A stretch of 36,726 bases of DNA. Source: Reclinomonas americana ATCC 50394. Its lineage: Eukaryota. The stretch lies in assembly GCA_048213135.1 (NCBI GenBank), contig PS015502.1, positions 1 to 36,726 of the forward strand, written 5' to 3'. Positions 1-36,493 of the stretch are shown here, in pieces; the stretch's first letter is position 1, and each line of letters starts with the position of its first letter. Made by a program: the position numbers and the translations under genes. The notes below the pieces were generated by a model. The model had not been told where the DNA came from, searched no databases, and saw only the letters and a list, made by a program, of their open reading frames with translations.

Positions 1-1264
1 TCAGCGACGAGTGGAAGTTGAGGAAGGGCGCCGAGTGCGCCTCATCGCCGTCCTCAGAGCTGACGGCGACCACTGCACCATCAATGGCCTGCAACTCGAT
101 GCTCATGTCGGCCAGTAGCGCATCGTAGTCCACACGCAGCGAGATTGTCGCCGACGATGCCTCCACCGCAATGACCATAAAGTGCACGACCCGATCCTTG
201 TAGTCCATATCGTCCACTCGCATCACATATGTGTCGGCGTAGGAGCGCACGTTCTCGTTGGGAGGCACCGTGAGCGCCACGGGCGGAAGGCGCACGTGGT
301 CCTTGGTGACATCGCCGCAGCGCACCTCCGCCATCACACGATGACTGCAAGCGGGGAGCGTGAGCAGTGAGTGATCAAGATGCACGTGGCACGGCGTGTG
401 GCGACGCAACATGGGTCGCAGGATGAAAGAAAAGTGCAAAAAGTCACACGGATCGTTGGTGGGCGTCGCCTTGCCCGCACGCAGGCGCGTCACCACCAGG
501 CGATAGGGATCGGCACTCGGCTGCAACTCGATCAGCTGACTCTCCCACGAGCCCGGTCGTGTACTGGCAAACTTCTGTGACACGCTGGCACACGTGAGCA
601 GGAGGAGGCGCGACGACGCGCGCACTACCAACGCACCGTGTCGACCACTCCCAGCGATTCCTCCAGTGTGGGATGAATCAGACGCGTCTGGATGTCGTCG
701 CCAAGCGTCTCGCTTCGAAAGAAGAAGCGCAGACGGGCGCGCACCAGCACTCGAAAAGCGACCTCATGCTCGGATCCATCCTGCGCACATCCGCCACGTG
801 GTGAGAGAAGAGTGCGAATTCGTTTCCGTGGACACACATTCCACGTCACACACGCAACTGGTGGCACCTGGAACCGCGTACCAAACACACGAATGGAGCC
901 ATCGGAGGCATCCTGCGTACCACCGTACTCGGCGAGCGCGTCTGTGCCACACGCGTGCCACGGTCGTCAGTCACAGAATAGAAAGAGACAAGGAGACTGT
1001 GCGCGGGTATACGTGCGAATGCATGCATGTATGTGTCGTGTGTGTGTGTGTGCGTGCATGTGCACTGACGCAACCCTTGTACAGATCCGTCGGCAGGGGG
1101 TAGCCGTCGATGTCGCACACACCCGCGTCGGGAACCACCACGCCCTGCGCGTGCACTCCCACCAGCACCGAATCCAACAGCACCAACACAACAACAGTCG
1201 CCACCACCATAGCAGCAGCAGCGACGACACGCGACGACAGCCGCGGCTGTTGGCGTCGCCGCAT
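1..1264 (-). CDS. Secreted/surface protein of unknown family, 3' end beyond the window; exons 1075-1264, 859-941, 637-780, 411-574, <1-344
   Basis: ATG at 1264 followed by a signal-peptide-like segment (VVAAAAMVVATVVVLVLLDSVLVGVHA-QG). Exon lengths 190/83/144/164 give consistent phases across four GT-AG introns, and the frame stays open to the window edge (…PCDFLHFSFILRPIHRVMAEVRC…). Confidence 0.7.
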
Positions 1265-1336
1265 GATTGATTTAGATTGCTCAGAATCCGTCCATCTCTC
1301 GAAATGATCCCCTTCGTCTCCCCTTCTCACAATTCC
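1265..1336. promoter_or_regulatory. Putative very compact bidirectional promoter
   Basis: Only 72 nt separate the divergent start codons at 1264 (-) and 1337 (+). Confidence 0.5.
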
Positions 1337-2374
1337 ATGGCTGAGCAGGCGGGAGAAGTGGTGATGATGGTGGAGAGGAAGGAGGAGGGGAAGGAGGAGG
1401 AGGAGACAGACGAGGTGAATGTGCTTGGCGACGGCGATGGCGGCGATGCCGTGGTGAACGACCTCTTGCGACGACATGCGTTGGGGTGTGTGTGTGTGTG
1501 TGTGTGTTTGTGTGTTCTTTTCGTGTTCGTCTTGAGCGTTGTCTCGCGCACTGAACATGCGGGTTGTGGCAGCGAGGTGAATCCGATTGATTTCTGTGAG
1601 GTGCTGGAGGAGCGGAGAGAGAAGCTGCGCATGCTCGACGCGGTGTACCGCAGCGAGTTTGCTCGCCTGCGACGCGTGTTGAGTGGTCGCCTGGATGCGG
1701 TATGTGTCAATCTTCCTCCTGCATCCATCTCTCTCTCACACACACACACTCTCTCTTCGTCTCCTTACACGGCAAATGCACAGGTGGATGAACTGAAGGA
1801 TCGCACCATTGCGGCCTCGGTGCTCTGGGCGGAGGAGCAGTATGCTGGTCGGACGCTGCATCGACGAAAGCGGCGACAGCGGCTTCAGCGGCGGCATTAC
1901 GCCTCGCAGGAGGACTACGATGTGGTGGAGCACTACCGTCGCTTCCTCGACTTGGAGGTCGGCCGCTCCGGTCGGCAGGCGTCGCACTTTCTGGTCTCGG
2001 TCACGCCGCAGTTGGCACTGGACTTCTCCGCCGACAGAGGATTGCACTTGTCGCGACCGCGAGTCATTGCTAATCCTGCACCGCCGCCAGCCACGGTGGT
2101 GACTCCCACTGTGTCGCACTCGTCGGCAATGGGTCGTAGTGATACAGCGTCGTCGCTGTTGCTGACGAACCGCGATCGAGTGCGCCTCGCCGCGCAGCTG
2201 CGGTCCATGGTGGAACAGGTGCGACACGAGAGGTTCAATCGGCTGCTGCAGGAGCCAGCTGAGGAGGCCGGCGCTGCCGACGAAAGCCAGAGAGGCGACA
2301 GCAGTGGTGGAGACACGGTGGCACCATCAGCAGAGGCGCCCGTAGGAAGTGACGGCGATGGTCTCCAGTCATAA
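1337..2374 (+). CDS. Hypothetical acidic/coiled-coil protein with two introns; weak resemblance to the KANSL2 helical region
   Basis: ATG at 1337, GTGTGT..CAG and GTATGT..CAG introns, TAA at 2372-2374. LRMLDAVYRSEFARLRRVL loosely recalls the KANSL2 L..LY..QF.RL..LL helix. A basic RRKRRQR stretch could be an NLS. Confidence 0.55.
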   Translation: MAEQAGEVVMMVERKEEGKEEEETDEVNVLGDGDGGDAVVNDLLRRHALGCVCVCVCLCVLFVFVLSVVSRTEHAGCGSEVNPIDFCEVLEERREKLRMLDAVYRSEFARLRRVLSGRLDAVCVNLPPASISLSHTHTLSSSPYTANAQVDELKDRTIAASVLWAEEQYAGRTLHRRKRRQRLQRRHYASQEDYDVVEHYRRFLDLEVGRSGRQASHFLVSVTPQLALDFSADRGLHLSRPRVIANPAPPPATVVTPTVSHSSAMGRSDTASSLLLTNRDRVRLAAQLRSMVEQVRHERFNRLLQEPAEEAGAADESQRGDSSGGDTVAPSAEAPVGSDGDGLQS

Positions 2375-2396
2375 ACGGTTACATTTATTATGCGCA

Positions 2397-3254
2397 TTAC
2401 TTTTTCGCGAGGACGAGGAACGTGGGAATCACGCCGACTCCCTTGCACTGCAGACGAGGTGTGGCGTTTGGGCACAGGATTAAGAAGAGATGGAGAGACA
2501 GGGAGTCGCAGCGCGCGCACTGACCTCGGCACTCGACGATTCGGTCTTGAAAAGACCGCGTGACCGCTGGTTGGTGGCCTCCGAAATCTGAATCGAGTTC
2601 GGCGGTGCCGTGCTGGCCATGCGCGAGGCGACATTGATTGTGTCTGTGCGAGGGACGAGTGAGAGAAAGTCACTTAGAGCGCCGTTGCGACACTATGGTG
2701 GTCGTCAGCTCACCGCCATACAGATCAAAGCTCTGTGTCAGCTGACCGACAATGCCAGCGGTACAAGGGCCCGAGTTGATTCCAGCGCGGAACTCGAGCT
2801 TGATGCGTCTCTATACATGCACACACATGTTACTACATCACGCGTGATGTTGTGGAAGAAAAGACAACTGCCTCACCCTCTCGCAGAACGATCTGATGGC
2901 CTCGAGGGCATGCAGTGCAAAGTCGGTCGCTGCAAACGCATGGTCGGGCCGTGGTCTGTACATTCCGCACACGACCATGTACGCGTGACCAATGGTCTTC
3001 ACCCGCTCCGCGTGCAACTTGCGGACGGTGGTGTCCAGCGTGGAAAAGAGTTCGCCAAACAATCGGATCTCTTCCTGCGCAGTCAGTGGGCCGGCGCCTG
3101 CGTCGGTACCGGTAGGAGTGCGTGAGCAACATGTGCGACTGCACAGGTGAAGACAATACGATGCTCAACCTTGTTCGCTGTCGATGCGCTCAACATCGCT
3201 GAGCTTGATGAAAACACAAGAGACTTCTGGGTGGAAGTCGACCAATGTGACGGT
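2397..3254 (-). other. Class III cyclase domain, C2-like half: keeps K, D, N, R and KG residues, lacks both metal-binding Asp
   Basis: EVSCVFIKLSD has K at the first-Asp position. VKTIGHAY has H (2985-2987) at the second-Asp position and keeps the substrate Lys (2997-2999). SFDLYG/DTINVASRM keeps D, N (2633-2635) and R (2621-2623). CKGVG matches the KGKG motif. Confidence 0.85.
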
Positions 3255-6200
3255 CTGGTGCGCGCGAGAGTCAGTGTCACTCGCAGCACATTGACGCGAC
3301 AAGTGCAGCAGTGCGTGCACGGCAGTGACGCAACGCCAGCATCGTCGGCGGATCTCTCCGATGTGAGTTTGCTCAGCACCGGTCGGGGGAATGCCGTGTC
3401 CAGCATCTTCTCAAACACCGTATTGACACCGCTGAGGACTTGCAAGTCGTCGACCTGCTTTGGTGGCTCGCCCACACGGCAGGAGTAGTATTTGACACTG
3501 TTGACCATGGTCTCGCGCATGCTGAACACACCGTCAAACTTGCTTCCATCTTTCCGTGTAACTGAGTACACAGCGGGCGCAGACGCGTGACCACCGACGC
3601 CCGATGAACGCGAGAAAGTGTTCACGAGGTCGCCAAATGTCGCCGTCTTGTTGTTCAGCGTGAGACGAAGCAGCTGGTCGATGGAAATCGCTGTATGCGG
3701 AAGGGCGATAAGTACACGTGCAAAACGAGACACGAAAATCAAGAGGATTGTGCTGTGCGCTCACCAGCTGACGCCAGCTCGTCTGCCGTGTACCCAAACA
3801 TCTATCACGTACCACACACGTTGTGAGAAACTGAGAATCACCATTGACCAAGAATAACACACGCACCCGCTGCACGGCAGGATTCACTTGCTGAATGACG
3901 CCGTTCCGATCACACCAAATGACGGCATCGGAAGAGGTGGCCAGCACGCCGTGCAACTCATCGTTCTTGCGTTCCATCTCGGATCTCGTCTGGCTCTCGT
4001 CCGACACGTCTGTGCGTGACAAGGTGCTTGCTTGTAAGGGGCAAGAGACAGAGTAGAGTGTGCGACTGATGCAAGGTGACGCAGACCTCGTACAAACGCG
4101 CAGTACAGTTGGCGTGTGTCGAGATCGACGCGAATGACGTGGAGATGAATACTGACAGCCTCTCCGGAACGCTTCTGTGCATACACTCCTCGGCCACTGT
4201 TTGTATGTGCGTGAGATGCACTGCTCTGTGAGTCTGCGGTCGAGAGTTATGACTTGCATGCATGAAAAGACGACAACGCACGCCACTGCCAGGGCCGACT
4301 TGGAGGCGTCCTGTTGGTTCATGCCGCGCACATAGTCATCGTGCCGCTCCTTGTGCGGCTCTGGAACAAACATCTGGCGCCAACTGTGAGCTAGAGAAGA
4401 ACAAAAGGTGCACGCACTTGCACAACTCGCGCAGAAGACGTACCCGAACATTCTGCCCGATCACTGCCGCCCGGTCATTGCCGTAACCGAGCAGTCGCAG
4501 GAGCGAAACATTGATATCCTCGATGATGCCGGCCGTGTCGGTGACCACAAAGCCTGTGAATGGTTCACAAGCAGGATAAAATGAATACCGCATTGGTTAC
4601 CCCGGGCATGTATACTTGTACGCAACCATCGTGCATGGAATTGAAAATGTACAACAACTGCACCGCAATAGTGTGGAAAGTGATGAGATGCGATAATGAG
4701 ACGGACACCAGCTACAGAAGACCAGACAAAACCTTCTCGCGCTGCTCCTGGAGACACCTTTCACGTTCCTTGTCCTCCGACACATCGTTGATGAAGCAGG
4801 AGAAGAATCGTCGTGCGGCAATGCGCCCCTCGGCCAGCGTGACAGTGACGGGCACACCTGAACCGTCGCGATGCACAGCCTGGATGTACACGAATGGTGA
4901 ACGGTGAGTTATCATTGATCGTCGCAGCACTAAAGGATTGTGCGGGTGACTGCGGAGGACGTAACGACGCTTTCGATCGTGCGCCCAATGATTCGCGAGG
5001 TGCCGGGTGGTTGCAACAGGTATCTGGCAATCAGCTGATCGTGCCTCTCCCTGCACGATGGGATTGGTGTAATGTCGACAAGCAGGCCCTCACAGACAGA
5101 CTACTGACTGACCGTACTTCGGCAGGCACAATCATCTTGATGTTGGAACCAAGTGCGTCCTCGGCCGGGTAGCCCAGCATTCGTGTGAACGACTTGTTGA
5201 CCATCTCGATGAGCCTGCGCGTCAAAGTCAACTACTTAGCCGCCGCACAAGCCACACACTCTCTTTCTCATGCAAGCAACATCTACAACACTAACCCCTT
5301 GTCGTTGGTGATGATCACGGCACGGTCCGTGGTCTGCAGAATGGTGCGGAATTTCTCGCTGTTCTCCTTCATCTTCTTGCTGAGGTCAGCAGCGGAGCCA
5401 AGCATGCTCCCGGCAAAGAGGAACGACTGCAGTCCTTCGTCGCTGTTGATCACCCCAACAGGAATGAAGAGAGCGAGGTGCTTGAGGTAGCGTGTGTTGG
5501 CATCAGCCGTCAGCAACAGCGGTCGAATGTAGAACACCAGCAACAGAACGATGGCGGCCAGGGCGATGCCGAAGAGCGCCTGCAGAATCATATTCTGCCG
5601 TGCGAGATACGACGAGAAAGCTGACCGCAGTATCTACAGGTCGACAACGCACACACAGATGAACACGAGGACACGTGAAGCAAGCGTACTCACTCACTCC
5701 CACCCACACGCACCGCATTGCTCTGGACAAAGTAATAGTCGAGGTAAGCGCGGGCAGAGAGCATGATGCTGAGTTGCTCCTGATCAAGAGCTGCGGATGC
5801 TCCATACGACTGCACGAGTACACTGGCGGCGTCGAGAGCTCGGATGAACTGCGACAGAGCGAGACCCGTGAGGAGGAGGAGGAGGAGGGTGACCTGTGAA
5901 ACGAAGAACCACACTCACCACCGTATTGTACGGCCAGCACATCAGACCAATCTGCCAGCTGCTGGTGCCACTCACACTCGGCTCACACCGATCGTCGTAT
6001 AGGAGGCTGTTTTGGCGTTCGTTGGCCGACGAGTCCCAAATCATCTCCGTGATGGTCGCCGCGGAGTCGGCTGTTGTTGCAGCCCAGGCTAGACGAGCCT
6101 TACTGACAGATGCCTGCAACGTTTCCAACAACAACCGCGAATCGCTAACACCAGAGCCACTGACGAGCTCGGCGGCGGCCAAAGTCGCCGTCTCAAAGTC

Positions 6201-9200
6201 TGCCACTCGGTCCTGAGAGTTCTTCACCACCGCCGCAAACACACTGCTCTGGGTGCTGGTGTTGAGGGACACGACTCTGTGGTGCGCGACGAGTGTGAGA
6301 GAGGTTCGGAGGAAGCGCTCGGCACAACAACAAGTGTGCTGCGTAACTGCATGATGCACAGCAACACGATGATGATGATGGTGAAAACAGCCACCCGGAA
6401 CCCGATGTTGCCGAGGAACTGCCAGTCGGTGCGCACGCACTGCGAAGGCCCGTATCTTCGCTTTGCAACCACCTGCGGCGCGTAGCCCTACACACCGCCA
6501 ATGTCAACGGGTTGCTGTCGACATTGCACAACTAACTACAAGTGACAGCAATGAAACGCACCTCGCGTTCCTGCTCCGTCCGTGCCATGAACGAAAGGAA
6601 CCTCTCTCGACACTGAAAGTACACCTCCTGTGCCGTCTTACGGGCAAGCGCCTCAAACGACTGCACCGCGCCCCTCAAGTCGGCAGTCAACGATCGCTCA
6701 ATCAGAACAATGACAACAGCGGCCACGACAGCCACGCATCTGCCAGAGGCATTTCAGCCAATGTATAACAACGATCAAGCCTCACATGCAACTCACCCGA
6801 CGAGAACGGCCAAGACAATGGCAGCCTCCAGTCGAAAGCTTCGATTCGTGCTGTCGAGTCGCGCACGGTGCTCATCACGCAGTGCATCCAGCGCGTCATC
6901 GACCCACAGCAGAGCATTCTTCAGCATAAAGTACGGGTTGTTTTTCATGGCCCCGCTGAGCAGTGTCGTGTCTTGCTTTGCGTACTCCTGTGAGGGAGTG
7001 ATAGAAAGTAAAGTCAGAAATGCACACACGTGACATGACCGTCCATGTACAAACGAAAACTAATGGCCGCACCGATGCAAGATCGCTGGTGGCAGCCAGC
7101 ACGTCGGCCAGCGGCAGGGTGCTTTCTACGGACGCCAGCTTGCCGGCCGCCACATCCACAAGCCAGTTGATGGAGACGCTTTGCGACATGGTATTCAGTT
7201 GCTCACTGCGTTGTAGGGTGTAAGGTCAGCACCGGTCCGCACACCACAAAGGATGACAGGCGGATTCGGAGGCACGCAACTCTTGATACTTGAGTAATTC
7301 GATGGCATCGCTTCGGGCGGCCGTGGCGTTACCTTGGAGGTAATTGGTGAGGTCGCTTACTTGCCGCTGCAGGTCGGCACCGGACGAAGTCGTTGTTGCC
7401 AGTCGTCGAAGGCGCGATGCCGAATAGACGCTGCGCATGAATGCAACCCTGCATGGAAACACGTGCTGTCTAGTGAGCGACAACTGCGATGTGCCCGACT
7501 GCAGTAGTGGGGGCGACGAAACTTGAGGTGATTGACGGCAAAGGAGGTGACCAGCTGCCGGTTCACGGCCGAGTTGGTTGTCGTGGCAAGCACGAAGCTG
7601 GCAACAACGGTTGCGACGAAGACAATGCCGATGCTGACCAGCAATAACATGGCCTGACGCGTGTGTGGATTCTGTGCAGCCTTGTTCAGGGAACACAGAG
7701 GACAGGCATCTAGCAGTACGAATTCTCGTCAAACCATCTCCGAGAGAACGACCTGACGGAGCATAGAAGAATACATGCTGTCCATCGACATGGTGGAGGA
7801 TCCTCGCGAGCTGGACGACATTCCGCTGCTGCTGCCGGTGGGTGAGCTGTCGGCGTCACTTGTGGTGTCTTTTGCGGCCATGCTGGTGTCGACTGGAGTA
7901 ACACTCGGCTTCGTTGCCTCTGCAGTGGACGAAACGACTCGTGAGCTCAAAGAAATGCAGACGAAAGAGGAACGACTGGCAGTGACGAAGCTCTCCACCA
8001 GTCGTCGGTGAGAGCCAGCCAGCTGCGGACCGAATAGACAGGATCAGCAAAAAACATAAATAAGAGCGGCAGAGCGAAGCAGGAGACCTTTCGTGTGCTG
8101 TTGGATCGAGGCGCCAGCTCACTCGAAGTAGCTTGCATCGGTACCACTTCGGTGGCGGTGGGTGCCTCATCCACATTCACGAAACCGATGCGTCGAGATT
8201 GCGCTCTCTTGACATCATGCCGTGGTGACCGACCGGCGGCGGCGAGGAACTTGCCAGGCACAGTGGCCATAGCGTGACGCCCTTCATCGTCGTCCTCCTC
8301 GTCGCCACAGTCGACCGCTGCACACTCTGCCTCGCTGCCAGTCTCGAACGGCCGCACTGCACCAACAGCGGGAGAGAGAGAGCGAGAGAGAGAGAGAGAA
8401 ATTAGTACGTGCAGGAAGAGCGACTGTGTAATGGCCCAGGACGCACCGTGATCTGTGTTCGGTGGTGGCGACCTGGCCACTGCCTTGACACGCACAAATC
8501 TACTTGGCGAGGCGACGGCACGTGTACGAGATGCCACCGTGTTTCCTTGGTCGGTGCTGTTACTTGAGGCGGACGACGACAACTGCGCAATGTCCACACG
8601 ACCAACACCACCGTGGTCGGTGGCGGCTCCTGCATCATGATCGGCTTCTGCCTGTTGTGGATCGTGTGCGTCGAACTTGGTCATAATGAAGTTGAGTTGC
8701 TGCAGGCGGTCGGCCATGTCCATCACGCGCTCGCTGGATGCGGCCTCTGCGTCGGCCGCAGATGTAGTCTGTTCTCGAGAAAGCTCGTCGGCGAGGTCGT
8801 CCAGTAGTGAGCCCGTGCGTCTATCGTTCAGGATCTCTGCAACAAACTTTGCAGCGCAAGGCCAGTCAGAGTGCACGAGTGAGCACCGCCGCCAACGGCA
8901 ACACGAAAAGAACAACAACATCGAGCCGGATACCTCCGCAAACATGGTCATTACTTGCCCGTCGTTGGGGTAGTCGCGCAAGAGGTCGCGGAACTGCTGC
9001 TCGCATTCATCCTGCTGCTCACGAATGTTGATGGGGATGGTAATGATCCGCTCATCGTGGCGGAACTCGCCGGCGAGGTGCTTCCAGAAGCTGACCAACA
9101 ACGCGTGTGTCTCGTACCACTTCAACCTGGCGGCGCGGATTCTACAAACGCCACTTCTGTGTCAGGAACAGTGCGGCGAAAACACGTCACACAAAGGCGC

Positions 9201-9694: not shown

Positions 9695-9736
<42 letters not shown>

Positions 9737-11422
9737 TGTTTGTGAGGTGTGTTACCTGCAGCGTCGACTCGTTCCCCTGTCCACCACTGCGTAGCGAGTC
9801 GATAAACTGGTCCACCGCCTTCCCCAGCACCGCCAGTCGCCATCGTTGAAGCAGTAAACCGACGACGACAGCAATCGGCAAGCCAGCACCGAGAATGATG
9901 AGGGAGAGGAGTGTGCGGGTGAGCAGCTGGCTTGCACTTGGTGCCGTGGTCGCGGGGATCACAGAGACGGCCGCCCACAGGATGCATCCGACACCCACGT
10001 GCGACATGATGTTGGTGGAGTGTCGGTAGAAGGGCGAGAACCGGATGGCGAAAATGGTGTATGTGAGTGCCAGCATGGCCACACCCGCTGCTGCGTGCAC
10101 CACGCCAAGCCGCGCCGCAAAGAATGTATGCGTAATGCACAACATGATACGGCACACATTCAGGGAGGCCAAGAACCGGCCGGCCAGAGGGCCCGCCGTG
10201 AACGCTGGTGAGGTTGGCTCGAAATCCTGAGACAGCAAATTGGCCAGGGTGGTCACCACCCCCAAGAAGGTGACTGCCAGCACGCCCAGCGAGCCGAGGA
10301 GCATATTCGACGACTGCAGAGACAGCAGCAGCACACAGACTCAGTCAGCTACTCATCGGTTCGTTGATGCGGTAGATGATTTGCGATCCCCAAACCTTGC
10401 TGCACACAAGCGCAACACCGCCATCGGTGGTGCTCAAGTGCGTCATGTCGTCAAAGTTGCAGTGCAGAGGCCGCAGCAGTGCGAGACACACCGGCGTCAG
10501 CGCCACGGAACTCAGCAAATGCAACTGCATGCGCAGCGCGCGGACCAGCAGTGTCGACTCGGCTGTTGTCTCATCGTCGCTCACCGATGTTCCAGCCTTG
10601 CGAGTCGACGACGTGCGCACCTGCACGGAGACCTTCCGCAGACGACGAAAGGCCACCACAATCTGCCAGACGAGCGCCGCCACGTACGCCAGCACAAAGA
10701 CGGAGATGCTCTGCACGAAACCGAGCGAGACCGTCTGCAGTCATGTAGAGCAGTAAGGCATCGATCATCGCTACCACCAAATGCATCGCAAAGAACGAAC
10801 CCAGGGGACAACTTCGTTGGCAAGGAAGGCGTAGCGCAGGACGCGTGGAATCCACACCGACCAGCCGCCGGTATTCGACAAGTTACCGAGGCCGCCAGTC
10901 GAGAGCGGCGCAAACATCCACGGATCCAGCACCAGCATCAGGGTCTGGAAGAAGATGAACAGCGTGACAGCCATCTCGATCCACAGCGCCTGAAGAATAT
11001 TCAAGATTCACATTAGAGGAAACTAGTGGATTGCCTTTTTTGGCTTCTTCAAAACTAATTATTCTCTTCCCCCCCCCTGTTTTCTCATTCGCTGCACATT
11101 TTTTTGTGCGCCGTGTGTGCGAGACGTCTATCTCCCACCTCTTCTCCTGCACATCCTCCTCACTCCACCAAAGCAACAAGTGCGCAATGTCTCAAAGCAC
11201 TGTGCGCAACTTGGTACTCTCTGCTACTGCGACCTGTATATGTGGTGGTGGTGGTGCTAAACTCACCGAGCCTGTGGAGCTCGTCGTGCGTCGGAAGAGG
11301 GCAAACAGGAACTTGTCCATGTTGCCGGCCGCCTGCTGCTTGTTCACCGGCGATGCGTCATTCCAGCCACCGCCGCCACCAGCAATGGTGCTTTGACTCT
11401 GCGAGTCAGCCGGCGTGGCCAT
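2397..11422 (-). CDS. Large multi-pass membrane protein (TmcB-like N-terminus) with 3 PAS domains and a C-terminal C2-type class III cyclase domain; about 33 introns
   Basis: Spliced manually from MATPADSQ… (ATG 11422) to …CKGVGVIPTFLVLAKK-TAA (2397). Order: multiple TM helices, TPR-like helical region, further TM pairs, PAS (NIKMIVPAEVRERHDQLIARY; MFVPEPHKERHDDY), then cyclase motifs VKTIGHAYMVVCG, FRAGINSGPCTAGIVG, FDLYGDTINVASRM. Confidence 0.85.
9644..9745. repeat. Imperfect (TG)n/(CA)n microsatellite inside an intron of the first cyclase gene
   Basis: About 100 nt of near-pure TG dinucleotides between the donor GTAACA and the acceptor TTCCAG on the minus strand. Confidence 0.95.
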
Positions 11423-23611: not shown

Positions 23612-26121
23612 ATGGGTCTTCGTGAGTTTCTGCGACGGACGAATCAAAAGGTCTCTCTACTCCCTCCCCCTCCTTGTGTGGGTGTGTCTGTGTCTCTCTG
23701 TGAGTGTCATGTCGCCTCACATACGATACGTGTCTCTTGTGCTCTGTGCTCTGTGTGTGTGTGTGGGAAATGGCCGTCGTCGTCGCAGTTCCTGCAAGGC
23801 GTGGGATTGGCCAAGGCCACTGGTGCGTGTGTGTGAGTGCGCGTGTGACTCTACACACACATGCGCAATCGAGCTCATGTCGAAAAATCGCATTGTTCCA
23901 TCGCATCGCATCCGCAGAGGACGAGGTCTTTGAGGCGACCAAGCAGCACGTGGGCGACTTGAAAAAGTGTGCCAAGCGCTTCGAGCCCATTCTGCGCAAC
24001 CTCAGTGCGCAGTTGGCGATTGTGGTCGGCACGCTGCTGGAGTTGGAGACGGCGTTTGAGGAGGTGTATGAGCCCAAGACGCGTTTGCGCGGTGCGGTGC
24101 TGGAGCTCAAGGAGAATGTCGAGTCGGTGCACAAGTCGTTTGATGCGTTTGTTGCGTGCACCGCTCTAGTTGTGCCCTTGTCTCGAGAGTGGCGATGATG
24201 ATGACGAAGGAAATCAATGGACACTGCAGAACGCCAAGATTGAGGAGGTTGCCGTGGAACCGGTGACGCGTTACTTGGGCTTGTGGGGACCGCTTGAGGT
24301 ATTCGTCACTTGCGATGATGTGCTGCATCATGGTTGTGACCGACTGTGATGTGTGCGCAGGAGAAAATGAAGCAGCGGCAAGACTTCATGTTGGATTTCG
24401 ACTCGCGTCGGCGGAAGCTGGCCAAGACGGAGAAGTCCAAGTCGCCGGATCCAGAGGTCCTGCAGCGGGTGCGTACTGTGGTGCAGCAGCTGTTGCGCAC
24501 ATTGTACTCGGTCGCTCACGGTGTACTGCTCGAATCGCAGCGACGCAACAAGACTGCGCAGTCCAAGGAGCAGTACGAGACCATGAACTTGGAATGTGTG
24601 CAGACCATGACGGACATGATCCGCAAGAAATTCGAGTTCTTCGATCCTCTCCTGATCAACGTTGAGTGCACGCACACTGCTGGGCTGTGTGCACTACTCA
24701 CTGCATTTCACTGACACCGTGGTGTGCGAAGGTGAACCTTACGGTGCTTGAACTTTTTGCGTCGATGAGTTCGAGCCTGGACAATGTGCGGCCAACCATG
24801 GCGCGCCTCAAGCGTGAACAGGCGTCGTACGTGTACCAATACGACGAAGATGATGATGTCGTGTTGCGTGTTTTGTCGGTCGTGCGCCCGTCCATAGAAG
24901 CCTCCTGGCTGACTCCGCTTCATCTCCCCCCGTTGAATCGCGCAGCGAGGGCGCATCGGCAAGTGCTGCAAGCGGCTCCTCGGCAGCTGCAGCCGCTGAC
25001 TCCCCTGCGCCAACTCGGCGCATGAGTCAGGTGTGTGTGTGCATTTATTTTTTTCGTGCTGACTGCGCGTCACTGACACCGTCGACAATCTCTGCAGTCG
25101 TCCATCACACCGCCGGTGGCAGCGTCGGCAAGCGCGGCCAGTGCGGCGCCCAACCGAAGAGTTTCGCGTGGGAATAGGGCATTTTGAAAGAAGAATGTCA
25201 TCAATATGCGTTTCCTCACAATTAATGTGTGTGCGTGTGTGCAGGCGACTGTGACTGGTTAGTGTTCCTTTGTGCTTGTTCTCGACATTGCTTGTGCGCT
25301 CATTGCATTTTATTTTCCTTGACCCAGGTCGCCCTCTGGATGGTGCGGAACCACTCGTACGCCTTGTTTGTCTGTCTGTACAACTCACCAACATCTGTCT
25401 CACAGTGTCATCGACGCCGGCCCCAGCTGCTGCTTCAGCGGCCAGTGGCGGTCATAATGACGACGACGACTTTGGCGCTCTGCGGGGCGGTCGGCGTCCA
25501 GTAAGCAGTTGCGTCGTTGCCTCTTCCATCGCCGTGCGTTTTTTCCACGATCGCTGATTTATGTGAATTCGAACGCAGTGGCATCTGCACCAGTCGCGCC
25601 ACCCAAGCCCGCTGCTGCTGCATCTCCGGCTCCAAGCGCGCCGCCGGCTCGTGTCGCACCTGGTAATCTTACACTTTCTGGCGCTCCTGGATCGTACCGC
25701 GTGACCTCATCCTCGCTTCGTATGAAAATGCAGTGGCAGTCGCACCCGTCAAAGCACCAGCCGCCGACGATTGGGCTAACGACGACTGGAGTGGTTTCGA
25801 GGACTTTGACTCACCGGCACCCGCCCGTGCCCCGCCCGCCGCAGCAAAATCCAGTGCCGCGCCTGCTGTCACCAGACCATCCAACCGCACCGGTGCGGTC
25901 GCAGCCCCCGCTGCAACCGCGAACCCCTTTGATGATGACGACGACGGCGACAGCGACTCGGTGCCTCGTCCACAGTTCGGCGCCGGTGCACCCAAGAGCG
26001 GTTCTCTACTTCACGGCGGCAGCGGTGCGAACATTGCGTGCCAACACTCACCAGTTGATGACAGTGTGTACTGACATTCTTTGGTGCAGGTGGCGGAGAC
26101 GATCCATTTGGTTTCTTTTGA
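23612..26121 (+). CDS. Amphiphysin/BIN-like N-BAR protein with a low-complexity tail carrying endocytic motifs, no SH3 domain
   Basis: MGLREFLRRTNQK|FLQGVGLAKAT|EDEVFE… followed by BAR helices (KMKQRQDFMLDFDSRRRKL; SKEQYETMNLE; FEFFDPLL). Tail has DDFGAL, DDWANDDWSGFEDF, NPF and terminal DDPFGFF-TGA. Confidence 0.8.
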
Positions 26122-26410: not shown

Positions 26411-29400
26411 TTACTGGCCCAGAGCGGCCCAGGTGAAGTCCACGGCTGGAGCACCAGGTCCTGGCACTGCAGCGCACACGGATCATGAGATCGAGAAACA
26501 AAAGAGGCGCATCGATCGGCAGCACGCAACGGCCAAGTGCAGGGCCAGCCGGGTTCGTCCACGCGAGGCACGCCTGGAAGGCAGTGGCGGTCACATTGGC
26601 CGTCGTCAGGGAAATAGAGTAGGCGAGCGCAGTGCCGGCCACATCGTAGACCGTGCGACTGGAGGAGTTGAGCTGCCAGCCGCGAGCAAACACCACCACT
26701 TGCGGCGCTGAAGTGAATGGCGTCGAAAACGTAATCGTGGTGCATGTAGCCGAGGTCAGTGTGCCCTGGACGCACATAAAGAGAGTGGCAGTCAGTGACC
26801 AGCTGGCATCCGCACCGAGTACCACCAGTCACGCACCTCTCCACCCTTGAGTCCAACGCCACCAGCATTGCCAGTCGCCTGCATGGCAATCCACGAGTAC
26901 ACGAGACGCGACACGCGAGCATCGGCGTACGCCCAGGCGCTACGCAGCAAGCGACGTACATGAATGAGGCACAAGAGAAATGTGCAACGGATAACCACGA
27001 CGGATAACACACACCGATGCGTAAACGACTGTGTGCTCACACCCTCGACGGTGCCCGTAAAGTGCGCCGGACGGCGACCGTCCAAGTGCAAGTGACGAAG
27101 CGCTGCAACCACAGTGGGCGGCGAGTTGAAGCCGAGGAGCGACTGATTGACGGCCTGATCGCGGCCCGGATCGGCAAGGAGCGAGCCAGACGGCGGCAGC
27201 GAGAACCAGTCGGAGCGCACTTGCGAGGAGTGGCTGACGGTGCCCTGGGCGGTGGCGCCGAGGTTGTGCGGCGTATAATGCGCCAGGATGTTGACTTGCA
27301 GATTCGTAATGCTATCACTGGCGTAGGCCAGGCAGCGCAGTGTCATGAAGCGCACATCGACACGCTGCACGGAGAGAGCAAAACACAATTTAGATCACAC
27401 CCGGTCGCAAAACTGGTCACATGGAAAACACACCGTAGTCGAGCAATACACGCGCGAGTCACTGACATCGGCCACAGCAAACGCAGAGATGCCGACGAGA
27501 ACGTCCGGGGTGCCGGCTGACGGCAGGAACATGCATGTGAGAATTGCAGGGATAGGCACCCAGCATACAAACACGCGCCAACAAACCGAAGCGCGAGTGA
27601 TTCGTCGGGTCCCACTCAATCTGCGTCTCAAAGGTGCGACTGCCCGTTCCGCCGTTGAACAGAGAATTCGCCCAGTCGGGGAAGAGCGGATCGGCGGCGA
27701 CCGAGGAGTTGACAATGTCTACAACGTAGCGCGCGTGAGCAGTCGATCTGTGTACCAAAGAAATCCCCCCGAGTGGACGCAACGAGTGCCCACAGCAATG
27801 ACACCACCAGGCACGGCAGCCCACGTAGTCCCGTCCGACTTGAGGTAGCAGACCTGGTAGGCGCCGCTGCTGGTGAACGTGGCCGTGGCGCCAAACGAGG
27901 TGCATGTGCCATCGGTGCCACAGTTCTTCACACCGACGTCACCCGCAAGCGGGTCGTTTGACGGAAGCGACGATGCGAACGTGCCCACCGTCGCCGGGCT
28001 GTTGCACAGATCCTTGCCAAAGACGACGGCCTTGATCTGGAGTGGTGCACATACACACTGAGTTCGCGAACGAGAAATGCGTGCTGGTCACCATGCACGC
28101 ACATTGATGCAGCTGGTGAAGCGACCGAGAAGGCGAACGAGAGCCGCGGTGTTGGGGAGAAGACCATCCGCAGACGACAGTGTGGGAGTCGAATTCGGAG
28201 CCGCTGCACGAGGGGCGCGTCAATGCAACTGGCCAGCAACAAAACACACCAATATGCGAGCACGAACCAGAGACAGCAAACTTGCCAAAGTCGACATCGG
28301 CGTTGCTGGAAGCAGAGAGCTTGCCACACAGACGATATGGACCGGGTGTGGCCAGAGTAGTGCACGAGCTGCGCGTGTCGACTTGCAGCTCCAGACCAGT
28401 CAGGACGGTGGATCCCACCGTGATTGTGGTGTTTGGCAGCGAGGTGCCATTGCATGCCGAGGTCGACGACACGTAGAACACGTTGCCGGCACCGGGCGTC
28501 AGTGCGGACAAGTCACCGCCCGTCACCGTGATCGTGGCACCGATAATGCCCGAAGGCACCACATACACGCCCGACGACACCGTCGGCGACACTGTGCCAC
28601 ACACGTTAGGAAACAGAAAGACCCATGTGGGAAAAAAGTAGAATCGACGCACAGATAGACACGGACAGGAAGAGCACCGGGCTGTATGAGACACCGCCAT
28701 TGATCGACTGGCACAGAGTGAGTCCAGTGTAGCCAGAGGAGGTGGCCAGGGTGTTGAAGTTGAGTGTCACCGAGGTGGCAGAGGTAAAGGTCGTGATGCT
28801 GATCTCCGTCTGGGTGGCAGCATCTTGAGTGCACGCCGCATTACTGAAGAGGTTGAACACCGTAAGGGCGGTGTTGCTGAAACCGCCACCGATGACCACA
28901 ACCGGCTGCGTCAGGGTGCTGGTCAGCAGCAGGATGCTCGTGGGCGAGACCGCGCACGGGCCAGCCACAGTCACAGTCGCGCCAGTCGGCGTGTAGGTGA
29001 TGCCGCCGTTAGTCGACGCACACAGCGTGAACGTGCCCGGTGCGACATCACCAGCCGCACTGGCAAATACCAACGTGGCCGAGGTCGCAGAGTTGATCGT
29101 TGGAGTGACAGTGGGGTTCGTGGCAAGAGTTCCGCACAACCCCGTGCTCAGCACTGAGGTCGTCAGTCCAAACACCGGAGCGACGAGCGGGGCCGAGACG
29201 GTGAAGTTGGATCCCGCGACATCCACACTCTGTGTGAAGGGACCTCCGACCGCTGCACGCGCACGCGTGATCAGCAGTGCACCAGAGCCGCGAGAGATGA
29301 CAAGAGGGAATACGGGCAAACCTGCATTGCACTGGCCAGCGTAGATGGTCGGCTGAGTGCTGACACATGTGCCGGTGATGGTCACCTGCACGCCCACGTA

Positions 29401-32400
29401 GCCCCAGTTGCCGTTGGAGCGGGTCTGGCACAAGAACATCGGAGCGCCGAGCGGGGTCGCCTGATTGCTCGTGTCGAAAATCAGACTCTGCGTCGTCGAT
29501 GTGGAGGCCGGTGTGCTTGCGGCACGGATGCGAACGGTGGTAAGCTGACCCGTGACACACTGGTCCGAATCAAACAGGCCAAGTCGGTAGGTACTGTTGG
29601 CCGCGGGAAGCGACAAGCCGGTAAAGCTAATGGTGGTCAGGTTGGTGGAAACCGAGCACGCCGGCTGCAGCTGCACGGTCGCAGGCGATGTGAGGCACGA
29701 GCCGTTGTTGCGGAGGACAACGCCTACACAACAACAGAGTTGGTGCGTCAGGCATGGGTGGAGACAAACGAACTTGTGAAACATAAACAAACCAGTGTGA
29801 GAGTAATGGCCATTGTCGCCCGCGGAAGTGGAACACAGGTACAGGTTGCCAGTGATCGTGGCGTTGCTGGTGAACGTCAGCGACAGAGACGTGTTTGCAG
29901 TCACCGTAGTCGGCGAGGAGACTATCACATGGCTGCCTTGATTTGCCGTGCAAGCGGCGTCGGTAAACACAGCGTACTGCGCACGAGTGCATGTGCATGT
30001 TGATAGTCAGCTTCCTTGTGTCGTACTGATACGTATGGATAGCAATTACCGCACCGTGTTCGACGCCGCCAAGTCCGTGCCCGTCAGCGTCACCACACGC
30101 GCAACCGCACACTGAGCACCACCTGACCTGTCGGCAATCACAATGCGCGTCGGCGAGAGCGAGCAGGCACCAGCCACTCGCACAGTTGCACCCTGTCGTC
30201 GAGCACAGTGAGCAAGAATGGAGCGTATCGCGCGAAAGATGAATCGTACGCAGGAATCACCGTGTCTACGTAGTTGCTCTGTGTGGACAGGTTGCGCACG
30301 CAAAGGTGCAGCACGGTGGCAGACGATGTCAGGCGGTTGACGGTATTGAAGCCGAGAGTTTCCATGTTCACACTGTCGACTGCAGTGCGCGAAATGGTGA
30401 TCGAGGTTTCCAGGGTGTCGCACGTGGTCGTAGTTGCCAAGGCGTACACCTGGTTCGGGTACGCTGCCGCCGTCTTGAAGCTCGAACCGAATACGCCCAC
30501 CGACAGAATGGCCGGATCCGGAATCGTCTGACCCACCACTGCCACGGTGCGCCTGTGGTAATCAATCGCAATACAGATTGTCAGCATCTCATGGAATGGA
30601 CAGAGATGTGCACGCACGAGGAGAAGCGCAGAGAAATTCAACTGTCGGACGAAGCAGGAACCAGGAGTCAAGCGGATGTTGGGGTTGGCGGAGAAGACCG
30701 TCTTCTGAATGCACGATCCGTCGTTGCGGATGACAGCACCCGTCCATGCGAAGCTGCCGGCGTCCGCGGCCGAAGAAGAGCAGAGGTACTGGTCGCTGTC
30801 CGCGACCAATGTGGCCGATGTCAGCGCCAGCGACATGCTGGTGAGGCCGGAGACAGTAGTGGGCGACGCTGTCGTGACAGCGGGGCTTGCAGTGGAGGCG
30901 CAGGCTCTATCCGTGAACACGCGATACTGCGCAGATTTCACACATGCACGAGGACAATGAGTGCCGGCGACAACAGGCAAATTGGCTGCACTCGAAAGAG
31001 TGCAAAACGCAACTGTCTTGGCCGGATCCAGCTGAGTGCCCACAAGAGTAAACGTGCGAGTCAACAAGGCATTCGTACAGAAGGGATCGGTCATCAAGAT
31101 GGACAGCGGTCGAGTGACACAAGAGCCGTCGACCAGGATGGTGGCGCCGGTGAACATCCAGTTGGTGCCACTGTCAGCACTCTTGAAACACTGCGCGGAC
31201 ACTACAGTAAAGACACGGGCGCAGGTGACGCTGAGACGGCAGATGAGTGTTTAAACACACGAACCACGTATCCAGGGCTGGTGTTGGTTGCCACAACCGA
31301 GGTCAGCGTAAACTCCAGCCGCTGATCCGTAGCACTCCAAGTCGCACCCGAAGCACTATTGGCGACCGTGCACAGCGTCAGATGACAAGCGCACAATGAG
31401 GTATACAAAGCTGACACCACACGCAACGAAGGAACAAGCGTGTAGCCCGTACGCTGCGTCGAGCAGGTGTTTTCATCGAAGACAGCGTAGCTCTTGGCGG
31501 CGTTCGCAGGGAGCGAAGGGTCGAGGAAACCACTGCCCTTGACGGAGATGGCTTGTGTGTTGGAGATGCAAGTGCCCGGGGTGAGGGCGACAGGGAATGT
31601 GTTGGTCAGCGCGCCGGCCGAGATACACGGCCCATCCACACGGACAACCGAGCCCGTCCACGAGCTGCGCGGTGGGAGGTAAGACGTGCACATATGTACA
31701 TGTTTGTGTGTGCAAGGTGAGTAACAACAGGTCACGAAACTACTGGCCATTGTCAGCCGCCACATCCGTGCTGCACAGGTAAAAGTTCGCCGTGGATGCG
31801 GTGACTGAATTGAAATCCAGCGTCAAAGTCGACGTGCCGAACACAGGGTTAGCGACGGTGACGGCCGTGGCCACGGTGGCGCATGCCGAATCCGTCGTGA
31901 TTTCGTACTTTTAGTTGAGAGAGAGAGAGAGAGAGAATACAATATGTCAGCCACGTGTGCGCATCGCCAGACCGCCAAACAACGTACCGCATTGTTGTTC
32001 TCGATACCGAAGCCCGACACGGTGATTGTACGAGTTGATGTGCACACTGCAGCACCCGGGTCGGGGAGCTGAATGCGGGCAATCGTGTTGGTGCACACGC
32101 CGCCGACATTGACAACCGGGCCTAGAACAAACATGTAAATGTCATTATGCGGCGGCCGTGCATGTGAACGGAGGCACACATACAAAGTACGCACCAACAA
32201 ACGCCCAGTTGCTTGTGTTGCCTCGACGCATGCAGAGGACGAACGAGGTGTTCACACTGGGACGGTACACAGTGGTCTGGAACGACAGCTTCTGGTTCCC
32301 CGTGTCGGTCACGCTGTCGAGCAGAATCGTCACTTGGAGGTTGATATTCGCCGGATCGCAAGTTTCAAATACCCCGTTGCCAGTGCTGGCGAACAAGGCA

Positions 32401-34469: not shown

Positions 34470-34562
34470 CGTCGCTCTTTGAGTAAGGATGCGCGGATTC
34501 CACGACAATCAACAAACAATTGTCGACTGCTTTCCAAGTGCGTTGGGCGTGGACTGGGGAGG
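34470..34562. promoter_or_regulatory. Putative compact bidirectional promoter (ISCA1 / DUF4422-like gene)
   Basis: 93 nt between the divergent ATGs at 34469 (-) and 34563 (+). Confidence 0.5.
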
Positions 34563-36493
34563 ATGACGCCATTGGCGTCGAGACGATCGTGCACTGTCGT
34601 TGTGGTGTCGTTGTTTGCGTGTGCGGTGCTGTTGGGCACGGTGTGGTCGCTGCTGCGCGCTGATCGCCACGTGTCTGTTGAGGGTGGGGAGAGAGAGGAG
34701 GCGGGATCGGTGGTGGTGGAGGAGGAGGAGGAGTTGATGTTGTGGGATGGTCGAGAGGATGTGACGGCGGAGGTGCATGAGTGGCGTGAGCAACTGGAGG
34801 TGTGGGTGATTGCGCTGGTGTAGTTGTGAGAGTGTGTTTGACTGTTGTGTGCGCAGGCGGCTCGGCGACGGGGACCTGTGGGCGGTGGGCAGTGTCGGGC
34901 GCATGTGACACGCATGGCGGGGTTGCCGGCGTCGGTGGCCAACTGGATCGAGATGGCTGTGCGCAATCCGTTCATGTTGCGCTCTTTATTGATTGACAAC
35001 TGCGTGTGCATTTCGTGACACGAGTGTCGCATCGCAGACATCGACTGCTGCTCGATCTGGCGTCGCCTACGTTGTGTCAGCGACCGTCGATGATGGCGCT
35101 GAGAGAGCGATTGCAGTCGGCGCAGTGCGCACGGCTGAGTAGTTGCGTGCACGCGCGCGCAACGAACGATGCTGGGCTCTGTTTTGCTTGTTGGTGACAC
35201 GTCGATGGTACGCGCACGCAGGTCACACGTCAACGTTCTGGCAAATCTACCACAAGCCGGAGACGTGGTCTTCATTGTACAACATGCCGTGGACAGGTGT
35301 GTATATTGCAGCGCTGCGTGGGCGATGCGCACAACAAGATCGCTCAATCGCCGTGCCGGCAGGTGGTATCAGTGTGACGCCCGACCAGTTGGCTCGCTAC
35401 TGCGACATCAACATTACCGACTTCACCACGACGTTTGTGACGGATCCACCCAGCAAGGGACTGCGTGCACAGACGCAGTTTGCAGAGCAGGCGGCGATTG
35501 TACCGTTCGGACTCGGCGCGTACTGCTTGCCGCTACCTGACTGGTTCGGCTTTGGCACATGGTGAGGGTGGGGCGGTACTCCATGCACTCGCCGCTTGCA
35601 ATTGCTGACGTGCGGTGTGTGTGCTCTCTGCAGGCAGCAAGACGTGAAGGTGCGGCCGCCGTGTGAGGTGCTGGGCGACTTTGATATTCAAGGTGTGTGT
35701 ATTGGAACGCACTCCCACTCCCACTCTCGCTCACCGACGAGTTGCGCAGCTGTGCCAGAGAATACCGTGCTTGCATGGGTGCGTGCTGGAGAGGATCGAG
35801 TTGCTGTCGTCGTCGTCGTCGTCGTCCCCCTGCCCTCACATGTATGTGTGTATAGAACGATTTTCTCAGTTCCACACAGGGCAGTCTGCTGAAACAGGCT
35901 GCCGAGGCACACGGCAAGGCACTGGTGGATACACTGGAGTCAATGATGCAGGAGGTGTTCGGCACGCCGTTCCCCATCCCGGCCGAGATCCAGTGCAAGG
36001 ACTACCGCTGCATCCCGTGCTGTGCCCACATGTACATGCACCGGAACACGCTTCGCGTGTTTGCCAAATTCCAGCTGGCCTTCTTCGCCTACGCCTTCGG
36101 TACAGGGCAATACTTGGGTGGTTGCTCGTACCTGGAGCGCGGAATGACGCATGGCCGGTGCTTCGCGTACGTTGCAGAGCGACTGACGTCGCTCTTCTTC
36201 TTCATGAAGGAACGCAAGGTGACCGCAACGTCGATGCGCTCTTCCCACCTGTTTCGTTCTGTGCTCACTCCCTCGGCTGCGCCACGCAGTTGCTACTGTG
36301 GAGGCTTCCGCTTCGCACCGAGTGTCCAGACCCGGTTTCCGTGGAAACCTTCGACTTTTACCAGCAACAGCCGGCACTCACTAATCAAGATATTAATCGA
36401 TTGTTCGACGCTCTCGTGGAATGCAACAATATGGCGGCGGCCGAGAATCAACAAGAGGAGGAGAAAGACGAGGCGGAGCGTGAAGTACCATAA
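34563..36493 (+). CDS. Type II membrane protein, possibly a DUF4422-like glycosyltransferase; about 7 introns
   Basis: Short basic N-terminus plus one TM (VVVVSLFACAVLLGTVWSLL), acidic stem, then FWQIYHK and GRCFAYVAERLTSLFF motifs resembling DUF4422 I…HK and R..G/A…ERL motifs. Ends at TAA 36491-36493. Confidence 0.55.

Follow-up and report, generated by a model that had tools for sequence, protein, structure and literature searches.

The predicted introns in a 36,726-base stretch of Reclinomonas americana ATCC 50394 (assembly GCA_048213135.1, contig PS015502.1, positions 1 to 36,726; hereafter the window) begin with two forms of 5' splice site, or donor. The regular form can be written G/GU[G>U>A][C>A,U]G[U>C], where the slash marks the exon-intron boundary. 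The second form, called shifted here, reads N/GUU[G>U>A][C>A]G[U>C], mostly GUUGCGU; it has one extra U after the GU, and the normal core lies one base deeper in the intron. Gene prediction from the sequence confirms this form as a frequent second donor class, which begins 20% of the predicted introns when the gene finder is blind to the donor, 16% under a stricter version of that blindness and 27% when the donor is scored. The reading favored here, with a probability of roughly 55%, is that these are GT-AG introns of the major type with two forms of 5' splice site, the shifted form being read in a shifted register. It is this register, together with any change in a small nuclear RNA (snRNA), that we infer.

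A frequent second donor class

All introns discussed here are sequence-based predictions from this one 36.7-kb window. The donor-blind model is a Viterbi gene finder written for this analysis, which combines GT...AG boundaries, a 3-periodic Markov coding score, an intron-content score, a 15-base acceptor matrix and a length prior, and which is ignorant of donor positions -3 to -1 and +3 onward. It called 143 introns (33 on the plus and 110 on the minus strand), from which 12 were dropped for belonging to short models on the strand opposite to a larger model; the remaining 131, distributed over nine larger gene models, form the blind set. Because the intron-content model could in principle learn donor words, a strict-blind control was also run, in which the first 10 nucleotides (nt) of each intron were neither trained on nor scored. 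The donor-aware model adds to the blind one a donor score taken from the two-register mixture described below and limited to intronic positions. It produced 133 introns, 128 of them in eight retained gene models, and these divide into 74 with G at +5, 35 (27%) with GTT[GAT][CAT]G and 19 others. The first gene model, based on codons only, fused adjacent introns and was replaced; crude as it was, it already used ten shifted sites.

The heptamer GTTGCGT occurs 23 times on both strands of the window, against 10.3 +/- 3.1 in 100 dinucleotide-preserving shuffles (0/100 reach 23), and it is the commonest single heptamer among the blind donors (n = 13). The wider motif GTT[GAT][CA]G[TC] begins 26/131 blind introns, where about 2.3 would be expected from its 45 occurrences among 2577 sense-strand GT sites (binomial p = 6e-20), and the strict-blind control retains it as the donor of 22/139 introns (p = 6e-15). 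Within gene regions this motif is found 45 times in sense and 18 times in antisense orientation. According to the mixture weights given below, the shifted class makes up about 40% of the donors with a recognizable core.

Reading frames point in the same direction. Retention would cause a frameshift or an in-frame stop in 29/35 shifted introns, which are required for an open frame, and an ordinary in-frame alternative donor within 45 nt is available to only one of the 26 shifted introns of the blind set (24863). Twenty-nine shifted donors had been listed in a preliminary description made from the letters alone. All 29 motifs exist, each at its claimed position and strand; as donors, 24/29 are used by the blind model and 28/29 by the donor-aware one, the site at 24151 (+) being used by neither. 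Its estimate of about 29 shifted among roughly 120 introns was of the right size, as the 26/131 and 35/128 of the two models indicate, and seven further shifted donors are added here, at 22233 (-), 17013 (-), 15985 (-), 10416 (-), 34976 (+), 36251 (+) and 36607 (+). The class had also been said to occur in 7 of 9 genes; it is indeed present in most of them, with a count that here becomes 7/8 gene models.

One core in two registers

The 131 blind donors were described by mixture models in which a background component absorbs false calls. A single register reached a log-likelihood of -2306.3, and two registers that share one four-base core and have a free inserted base reached -2220.6, that is, twice the log-likelihood difference is 171 for 4 extra parameters (168.8 in an earlier version of the fit). 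Separate cores for the two registers gave -2214.9, and the corresponding 11.4 for 12 parameters is no real gain. A +2 register, tried as a third one, took a weight of 0.014, brought no gain and was rejected. In the two-register fit the weights are 0.365 for the background, 0.37 for the normal register and 0.264 for the shifted register. The core common to both registers reads [G 0.65, T 0.21, A 0.12][C 0.60, A 0.20, T 0.19][G 0.93][T 0.77, C 0.14]. The earlier formula of a usual donor with an extra T, carrying its G at +6 and not at +5, is therefore an accurate formal summary of this fit.

The inserted base is specific. It was learnt as T 0.86, G 0.12, A 0.01 and C 0.01, and neither GTA nor GTC followed by the core is ever used as a donor (0/8 and 0/40 sense-strand sites, respectively).

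The last exon base, position -1, was never part of any gene or donor model and differs sharply between the two classes. It is G in 31/39 regular donors of the blind set (GT[GAT][CA]G) and in 3/26 shifted ones (Fisher p = 5e-8), and in the donor-aware set in 57/74 ordinary and 5/35 shifted donors, in agreement with the preliminary observation that it is usually not G in the latter. Regular donors carry the -1 G together with the +5 G. Shifted donors are enriched in A at this position, with 12/26 in the blind set against a background of 0.17 (p = 5e-4) and 14/35 in the donor-aware set. The idea that cleavage takes place one base downstream of the G was considered and discarded, the first exon base after the shifted introns being G in only 12/35 cases (by eye).

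Junctions supported by homology

Two tandem genes on the minus strand, referred to here as A and B, encode paralogous proteins with PAS and adenylate/guanylate-cyclase domains, and five shifted junctions in them are supported by homology: those with donors at 12832, 4965, 4732, 4626 and 14324. The best supported is the one at 12832, in the cyclase domain of gene B. The exon before this intron (12760-12832) matches positions 4-93 of the Pfam profile Guanylate_cyc with residues 11-102 of 103, and in the following exon residues 4-73 cover positions 98-168, so that the profile is continuous between positions 94 and 95 across the splice. In addition, a 114-residue environmental fragment (P0010), encoded by a 555-base environmental contig, is colinear with the spliced product across this junction: its residues 1-74 correspond to 13057-12836 and its residues 77-111 to 12756-12652, with no gap over the junction, and residues 75-76 are left exactly to the two flanking codons. 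This colinearity therefore points to a related organism in sequenced environments, in which the intron is absent or of which RNA was sampled.

The other four junctions rest on the comparison of the paralogs. The products of gene A across 4965, 4732 and 4626 align without gaps to the PAS sequence of gene B, whose counterpart of the 4732 and 4626 junctions is an uninterrupted exon. In the opposite direction, the product of gene B across 14324 aligns without gaps to a continuous exon of gene A.

Shifted and regular introns compared

Apart from the donor, the two classes look alike. Median length is 73 nt in shifted and 71 nt in regular introns (p = 0.73), and G+C content does not differ (p = 0.16). 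In the stretch 8-45 nt from the 3' end, 28/35 shifted and 46/74 regular introns have a branch-like CT[GCA]A[CT], and the acceptor has C at -3 in 28/35 and 61/74, respectively. Both kinds are interleaved in 7/8 gene models, and all shifted introns (35/35) are GT-AG by construction of the models. By frame restoration and by their branch and acceptor features, the predicted shifted introns class with ordinary major (U2-type) GT-AG introns.

Pairing with U1 and a possible mechanism

Nearest-neighbor duplex energies were calculated for the donors, pseudouridine and U1 proteins being ignored. The standard U1 5' end was taken as AUACUUACCUG, as printed in PMC4856993; the standard 5' end is also written ACUUACCU. 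With this 5' end the mean duplex energy is -6.05 kcal/mol for regular donors, -1.69 for shifted donors and -2.46 for all sense-strand GT sites. The intron G+1 falls on C8, that is, in the normal register with a bulge, in 5/35 minimum-energy duplexes of shifted donors. A hypothetical U1 5' end with A at position 8 brings shifted donors to -4.18 kcal/mol and places G+1 on C9 in 33/35 of them; 7.4% of background sites then reach the median of the shifted class, to be compared with 5.9% reaching that of the regular class with standard U1. The control changes C8>U and C9>A did not have this effect on shifted donors. Since standard U1 pairs poorly with GUUGCGU in any register, recognition of the shifted form would probably need a U1 5' end that differs opposite U+2, or else strong help from proteins and U6.

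In the mechanism proposed here, U1 early and U6 later would bind both donor forms over the same heptamer, G-(G/U)-U-G-C-G-U, and cleavage would take place at the first GU of this heptamer. In the shifted form the intron G+1 would then sit where the exon G at -1 sits in regular donors, a place that faces C9 of U1 in the shifted register of rare human sites. Several features of the class would follow from this arrangement. The -1 G would not be selected because G+1 takes its place; the extra base would be restricted to U because its partner would be the A otherwise found opposite U+2; and the enrichment of A at -1 would be accounted for as well. For its part, U6 would have to accept the extra base.

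A number of observations weigh against the shifted-register reading. The introns are all ab initio predictions, and the models make visible errors: the blind model misplaced an ordinary intron, calling 2809-2889 where Pfam supports 2811-2876, preferred in-frame GTs 3-24 nt upstream of the shifted donors at 15861, 25508 and 35142, made no call at 31427 and, at 24151, took a GT 4 bases upstream (24147) with another acceptor. Gene A has a 5-residue insertion relative to paralog B exactly at the 3169 junction, which is therefore only partly supported. With standard U1, G+1 lies on C9 in only 7/35 shifted minimum-energy duplexes and the class pairs no better than random GT sites, so energetics do not support the shifted register unless U1 differs. 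Position -2, which would face U10 in regular donors, has no preference for A there (4/39 in the blind and 16/74 in the donor-aware set), and pairing of the -1 A with U10 therefore requires an extra assumption. Finally, the missing -1 G could be an instance of the known compensation between the exon side and the intron side of the donor (Parker et al. 2025, PMC11732430).

Alternative explanations

The most probable alternative places the change in the snRNAs, as the preliminary description had done in inferring a variant U1 and/or U6 (or a spliceosome that tolerates two registers): two U1 species, or a single altered U1 (possibly also U6), would provide shifted donors with their own reader, fully complementary to (A)GUUGCGU by means of, for instance, an A in place of C8 or an extra A. 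Each register would then be canonical for the snRNA that reads it. This is a tentative proposal, held with clearly less confidence than the shifted register as such. The failure of the standard 5' end to separate shifted donors from random GT sites speaks for it, as does the C8>A 5' end, which separates them about as well as the standard one does regular donors and also predicts the A at -1 through a pair with U10. Co-evolved U1 5' ends have moreover been described in Entamoeba and Mastigamoeba, and Physarum reportedly has both kinds (10.1101/2022.06.08.495308). Against it stand the single core shared by both classes, including a C at +4/+5 that standard U1 does not pair, the retention of standard U1 in Micromonas and Thecamonas, lineages with GYGCGY donors (same source), and the simplifications of the energy model on which the C8>A result depends, which leaves out pseudouridines and U1 proteins. 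In a broader form, that of a major spliceosome working in two registers, about a quarter of the introns would be read by a second U1 or by one whose 5' end has changed, for instance to carry an A opposite U+2, with a matching tolerance or variant of U6; this version is likewise no more than a tentative suggestion. If it is true, the distance from the scissile bond to the U1 and U6 helices would differ by 1 nt between two abundant classes of introns within the same genes.

It is rather unlikely, and slightly more so than an altered U1, that U1 keeps its normal register while one U, at +2 or +3, bulges out, and that the absence of the -1 G reflects only the usual compensation. Experimental work has described a register of this kind in humans, with the bulge at +3 (or +2) (PMC4856993), the run of two U residues lets either of them bulge, and compensation between -1 and +5 is well known (PMC11732430). 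A bulge should nevertheless tolerate bases other than the T that is strictly found here. It also frees C9, so that a -1 G should help; yet this G is present in 12-14% of shifted donors, compared with 77-79% of regular donors with a full intronic core. The scarcity of duplexes with G+1 on C8 under standard U1 (5/35) goes in the same direction.

A gene-modeling artefact, with GTTGCGT enriched for some other reason and nearby GT or GC sites acting as the real donors, is very improbable. It is true that the introns are all predicted, that self-trained models can reinforce their own errors, that 6/35 shifted introns preserve the frame, contain no stop and are hence not required, and that one site has an ordinary alternative donor. 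However, the enrichment survives the strict-blind run and is visible already in the codon-only model, the open frame depends on the removal of most shifted introns, homology backs five junctions, the motif is biased to the sense strand, and the -1 contrast lies outside every model.

A separate intron type, either minor (U12-type) introns or a mobile introner bringing its own donor, would be expected to leave some introns with a highly conserved donor of 7 bases, and can be practically dismissed, as neither the U12 donor [AG]TATCCT nor the branch site TCCTT[AG]AC occurs on the sense strand of any gene model (nor does the longer combination of a /[AG]TATCCTT donor with a TCCTTAAC branch site), the 2+2 U12-like matches on the plus strand at 4514, 17541, 20793 and 25316 include two donor-like ones that are antisense to minus-strand genes, the branch motif, acceptor and length of shifted introns equal those of regular ones, and an all-against-all comparison of the 128 introns gives microsatellite matches only, so that the introns are not introner copies.

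Individual introns and alternative sites

The predicted shifted introns are listed in Table 1, together with gene models A and B. Six of them have a length divisible by 3 and no in-frame stop, all on the minus strand: 345-410, 781-858, 22168-22233, 22518-22580, 30927-31013 and 31335-31427. Left unspliced, each of the six would only lengthen the protein by 21-31 residues; either their calls are the least certain of all, or their retention could be regulated. For this reason the intron at 345-410 is not needed for the open reading frame and the one at 31335-31427 is a weak call.

Three shifted donors have an in-frame GT 3 bases upstream, at 35139/35142 (+), 31743/31740 (-) and 4968/4965 (-), in the contexts GTAGTTGCGT, GTAGTTTCGT and GTCGTTACGT, respectively. 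Each pair may act as tandem donors, with a difference of one codon between the two products. Another potential choice is found at 3075-3194 (-), where GTTGAGC occurs twice, with donor positions 3194 and 3169 (25 nt apart), and so does an acceptor-like CAG, at 3098 and 3075 (23 nt apart). Splicing from 3194 to 3075 would keep the frame too (phase 0) but would remove 11 residues of the cyclase domain; 3194/3075 and 3169/3098 may represent an alternative splice choice. CA/GT and CT/GA microsatellites are present inside several introns (9583-9755, 23455-23860, 942-1074 (-) and others).

Table 1. Predicted introns with a shifted donor, one unused donor motif, and gene models A and B. "Claimed" marks donors listed in the preliminary description and "unlisted" those absent from it; "blind" and "donor-aware" name the model that called the intron.
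Feature	Length	Position	Strand	Remarks
Gene model A	~2209 aa	1993..11485	-	TmcB-like TPR/PAS/cyclase protein; 36 exons; Pfam TPR_TmcB, PAS, Guanylate_cyc
Gene model B	~2196 aa	12160..20839	-	paralog of A; 31 exons
Intron GTTGCGT	66 nt	345..410	-	claimed; blind and donor-aware; in frame without stop
Intron GTTGCGT	78 nt	781..858	-	claimed; blind and donor-aware; in frame without stop
Intron GTTGCGT	133 nt	942..1074	-	claimed; blind and donor-aware; needed for frame
Intron GTTGAGC, gene A cyclase domain	72 nt	3098..3169	-	claimed; blind; Guanylate_cyc on both sides fixes frame
Intron GTTGCGT	80 nt	3255..3334	-	claimed; blind; needed for frame
Intron GTTGCGT	73 nt	4554..4626	-	claimed; blind; paralog alignment gap-free
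Intron GTTTTGT	75 nt	4658..4732	-	claimed; blind; paralog alignment gap-free
Intron GTTACGT	86 nt	4880..4965	-	claimed; blind; gap-free over conserved PAS
Intron GTTACGC	71 nt	6277..6347	-	claimed; blind; needed
Intron GTTGCGT	75 nt	7206..7280	-	claimed; blind; needed, in-frame stop if retained
Intron GTTTCGT	74 nt	7449..7522	-	claimed; blind; no alternative in-frame GT within 45 nt
Intron GTTGCGC	103 nt	10314..10416	-	unlisted; donor-aware only
Intron GTTACGT, gene B cyclase domain	73 nt	12760..12832	-	best-supported junction; Pfam and P0010
Intron GTTGCGC	71 nt	13142..13212	-	claimed; blind; needed
Intron GTTTCGT	58 nt	14267..14324	-	claimed; blind; gap-free against exon of paralog A
Intron GTTGCGT	62 nt	15800..15861	-	claimed; donor-aware; blind took in-frame GT 18 nt upstream (15879)
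Possible intron GTTGTGT	53 nt	15933..15985	-	unlisted; blind
Intron GTTACGT	85 nt	16929..17013	-	unlisted; blind; needed
Intron GTTGAGT	68 nt	17416..17483	-	claimed; blind; needed
Intron GTTGCGT	60 nt	19913..19972	-	claimed; blind; in-frame stop if retained
Intron GTTGCGT	66 nt	22168..22233	-	unlisted; blind; in frame without stop
Intron GTTGCGT	63 nt	22518..22580	-	claimed; blind; in frame without stop
Claimed GTTGCGT donor, unused		24151..24157	+	motif present; blind has instead a 43-nt intron, 24147-24189
Intron GTTGAGT	71 nt	24661..24731	+	claimed; blind; no alternative in-frame GT within 45 nt
Intron GTTGCGT	83 nt	24863..24945	+	claimed; blind; ordinary alternative GTACGTG 36 nt upstream, in frame
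Intron GTTTCGC	84 nt	25161..25244	+	claimed; blind; needed
Intron GTTGCGT	71 nt	25508..25578	+	claimed; donor-aware only; blind took GT 12 nt upstream
Intron GTTGCGT	64 nt	26467..26530	-	claimed; blind; no alternative in-frame GT within 45 nt
Intron GTTGCGT	65 nt	27719..27783	-	claimed; blind; needed
Intron GTTGCGT	87 nt	30927..31013	-	claimed; blind; in frame without stop
Intron GTTGCGT	93 nt	31335..31427	-	claimed; donor-aware only; in frame without stop
Intron GTTTCGT	76 nt	31665..31740	-	claimed; blind; needed
Intron GTTGCGC	62 nt	34976..35037	+	unlisted; blind; needed
Intron GTTGCGT	80 nt	35142..35221	+	claimed; donor-aware; blind took in-frame GT 3 nt upstream (GTAGTTGCG)
Possible intron GTTTCGT	53 nt	36251..36303	+	unlisted; donor-aware only
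Possible intron GTTGCGT	79 nt	36607..36685	+	unlisted; donor-aware only; near window end

Genes in the window

The window has 54-60% G+C, and six-frame Pfam scans find eukaryotic genes split into many short exons, with a density of about 128 predicted introns in 36.7 kb. Among these are the tandem genes A and B, with TPR_TmcB, PAS and adenylate/guanylate-cyclase domains; further genes carry DUF4460/DUF4461, H-type-lectin and IscA-like domains, and there are two plus-strand genes. The products of A and B, each of about 2200 residues, have a transmembrane region, TPR_TmcB, several PAS domains and a class III cyclase domain. Their spliced models align by blastp with E = 1.5e-67 and 25.6% identity over about 780 columns; this alignment superseded a direct tblastn of the cyclase paralogs, which had given 6 short matches only. 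In the donor-aware model the donors of gene A are 9 shifted, 21 ordinary and 5 other, and those of gene B 8 shifted, 16 ordinary and 6 other. The cyclase of gene A has an S at the place of the D in the FASDIV motif of gene B (blastp alignment), and its cyclase domain may therefore be catalytically degenerate.

An exhaustive protein search with the cyclase exon gave 11,966 matches, among which the nearest full-length relatives are 30-36% identical and the environmental fragment P0010, at 61%, is the only one above 50%. Ten named matches are spread over Synstelium, Mastigamoeba, Chromosphaera, Hondaea and Diphylleia, thus covering Amoebozoa, Holozoa, stramenopiles and Diphylleia. The IscA exon matched 3 proteins at 46-58% identity, among them an MMETSP transcript and one from Phaeothamnion, and two large exons used in a word-indexed protein search had no match there. 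A metagenome scan found 6 loci at 32-40% identity, too distant for a comparison of introns, and an Atlas search returned TPR_TmcB leads only, all below 0.9.

No Rfam family, snRNA genes included, reaches its gathering score in the window, and at E<=1 there are only 8 sub-threshold matches resembling microRNAs (miRNAs) and none to an snRNA. At 33198-33298 an inverted microsatellite of the form (GA)n...(TC)n has a predicted hairpin structure about 95 nt long (-37.6 kcal/mol, z = -3.5). On both strands it matches plant miRNA models below threshold, and it lies within a 313-nt intron of the blind model (33129-33441). This hairpin is most likely a low-complexity artefact.

Comparison with known systems and implications

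Donors with a displaced or bulged pairing to U1 are known from humans, and the following comparison draws on Tan et al. 2016 (PMC4856993). GUU-type donors have two known human readings, a shifted register and a bulge at +3 (or +2). The preliminary description had regarded such donors as a rare exception in mammals, which the human figures bear out: the bulge +2/+3 and bulge +3 registers account for 54 and 36 of 201,541 5' splice sites, and the validated non-canonical registers as a whole for 1.5%. At human shifted-register sites (Roca & Krainer, via PMC4856993) the pairing of U1 is displaced by one position, G stands at +6 and cleavage is fixed later and not by U1; the G at +6, which here follows from how the class is defined, and the loss of the -1 G are both found in the window. 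The human sites are nevertheless rare and have long complementarity to standard U1 from +4 to +8, whereas here the class comprises 20-27% of the predicted introns, its GCGU core is poorly paired with standard U1, and the register would be deduced rather than observed. With the human bulge registers (Roca et al. 2012; Tan et al. 2016, PMC4856993) the donors of the window share the GUU start and a consensus that resumes after one skipped base. They differ in frequency (26/131 to 35/128 here), and the depletion of -1 G and the strict T fit a bulge less well.

Other protists offer a precedent for a changed U1. According to 10.1101/2022.06.08.495308, the U1 5' end is ACAAAC in Entamoeba, for GUUUGU donors, and ACGUAC in Mastigamoeba, for GUACGU donors, and Physarum is said to have a standard and a modified U1. 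In Entamoeba and Mastigamoeba an atypical donor of the whole lineage is thus explained by a changed U1 5' end, which provides a precedent for a variant U1; unlike the two registers found here within the same genes, each has one donor form in the normal register. The GYGCGY donors of Mamiellales (Ostreococcus, Micromonas) and the +4C donors of Thecamonas resemble the regular class of the window, with its GTGCGT and a CTGAC-like branch. A second class shifted by +1 is not described for Mamiellales or Thecamonas in the portion of the literature compared, and the window is far more intron-dense. Genomes with two donor classes, one relying on the exon-side G and the other on a strong intron side, use one register, while here the core itself is displaced by one base. 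In the full-text literature, where subscription journals are thinly covered and no organism-specific search was made, GTTGCGT-type or +1-shifted donors were not found as a major class in any organism. Non-canonical registers as such are known; what would be new is one that, judging from the predicted donors, makes up a major class and follows a strict GUUGCGU consensus.

The position of the exact cleavage site, relative to the U1 helix at first and to the U6 helix at catalysis, continues to be debated on the basis of a few rare human sites and of engineered mutants. About a quarter of introns with a displaced core would mean hundreds to thousands of natural test cases, if the window is typical of the genome. 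If the shifted-register reading is true, this organism would also lend itself directly to a search for co-evolved changes in U1 and U6, or in U1C, Luc7 and Prp8. At the practical level, gene finders that assume a single register would overlook, or place wrongly, about one in four of its introns.

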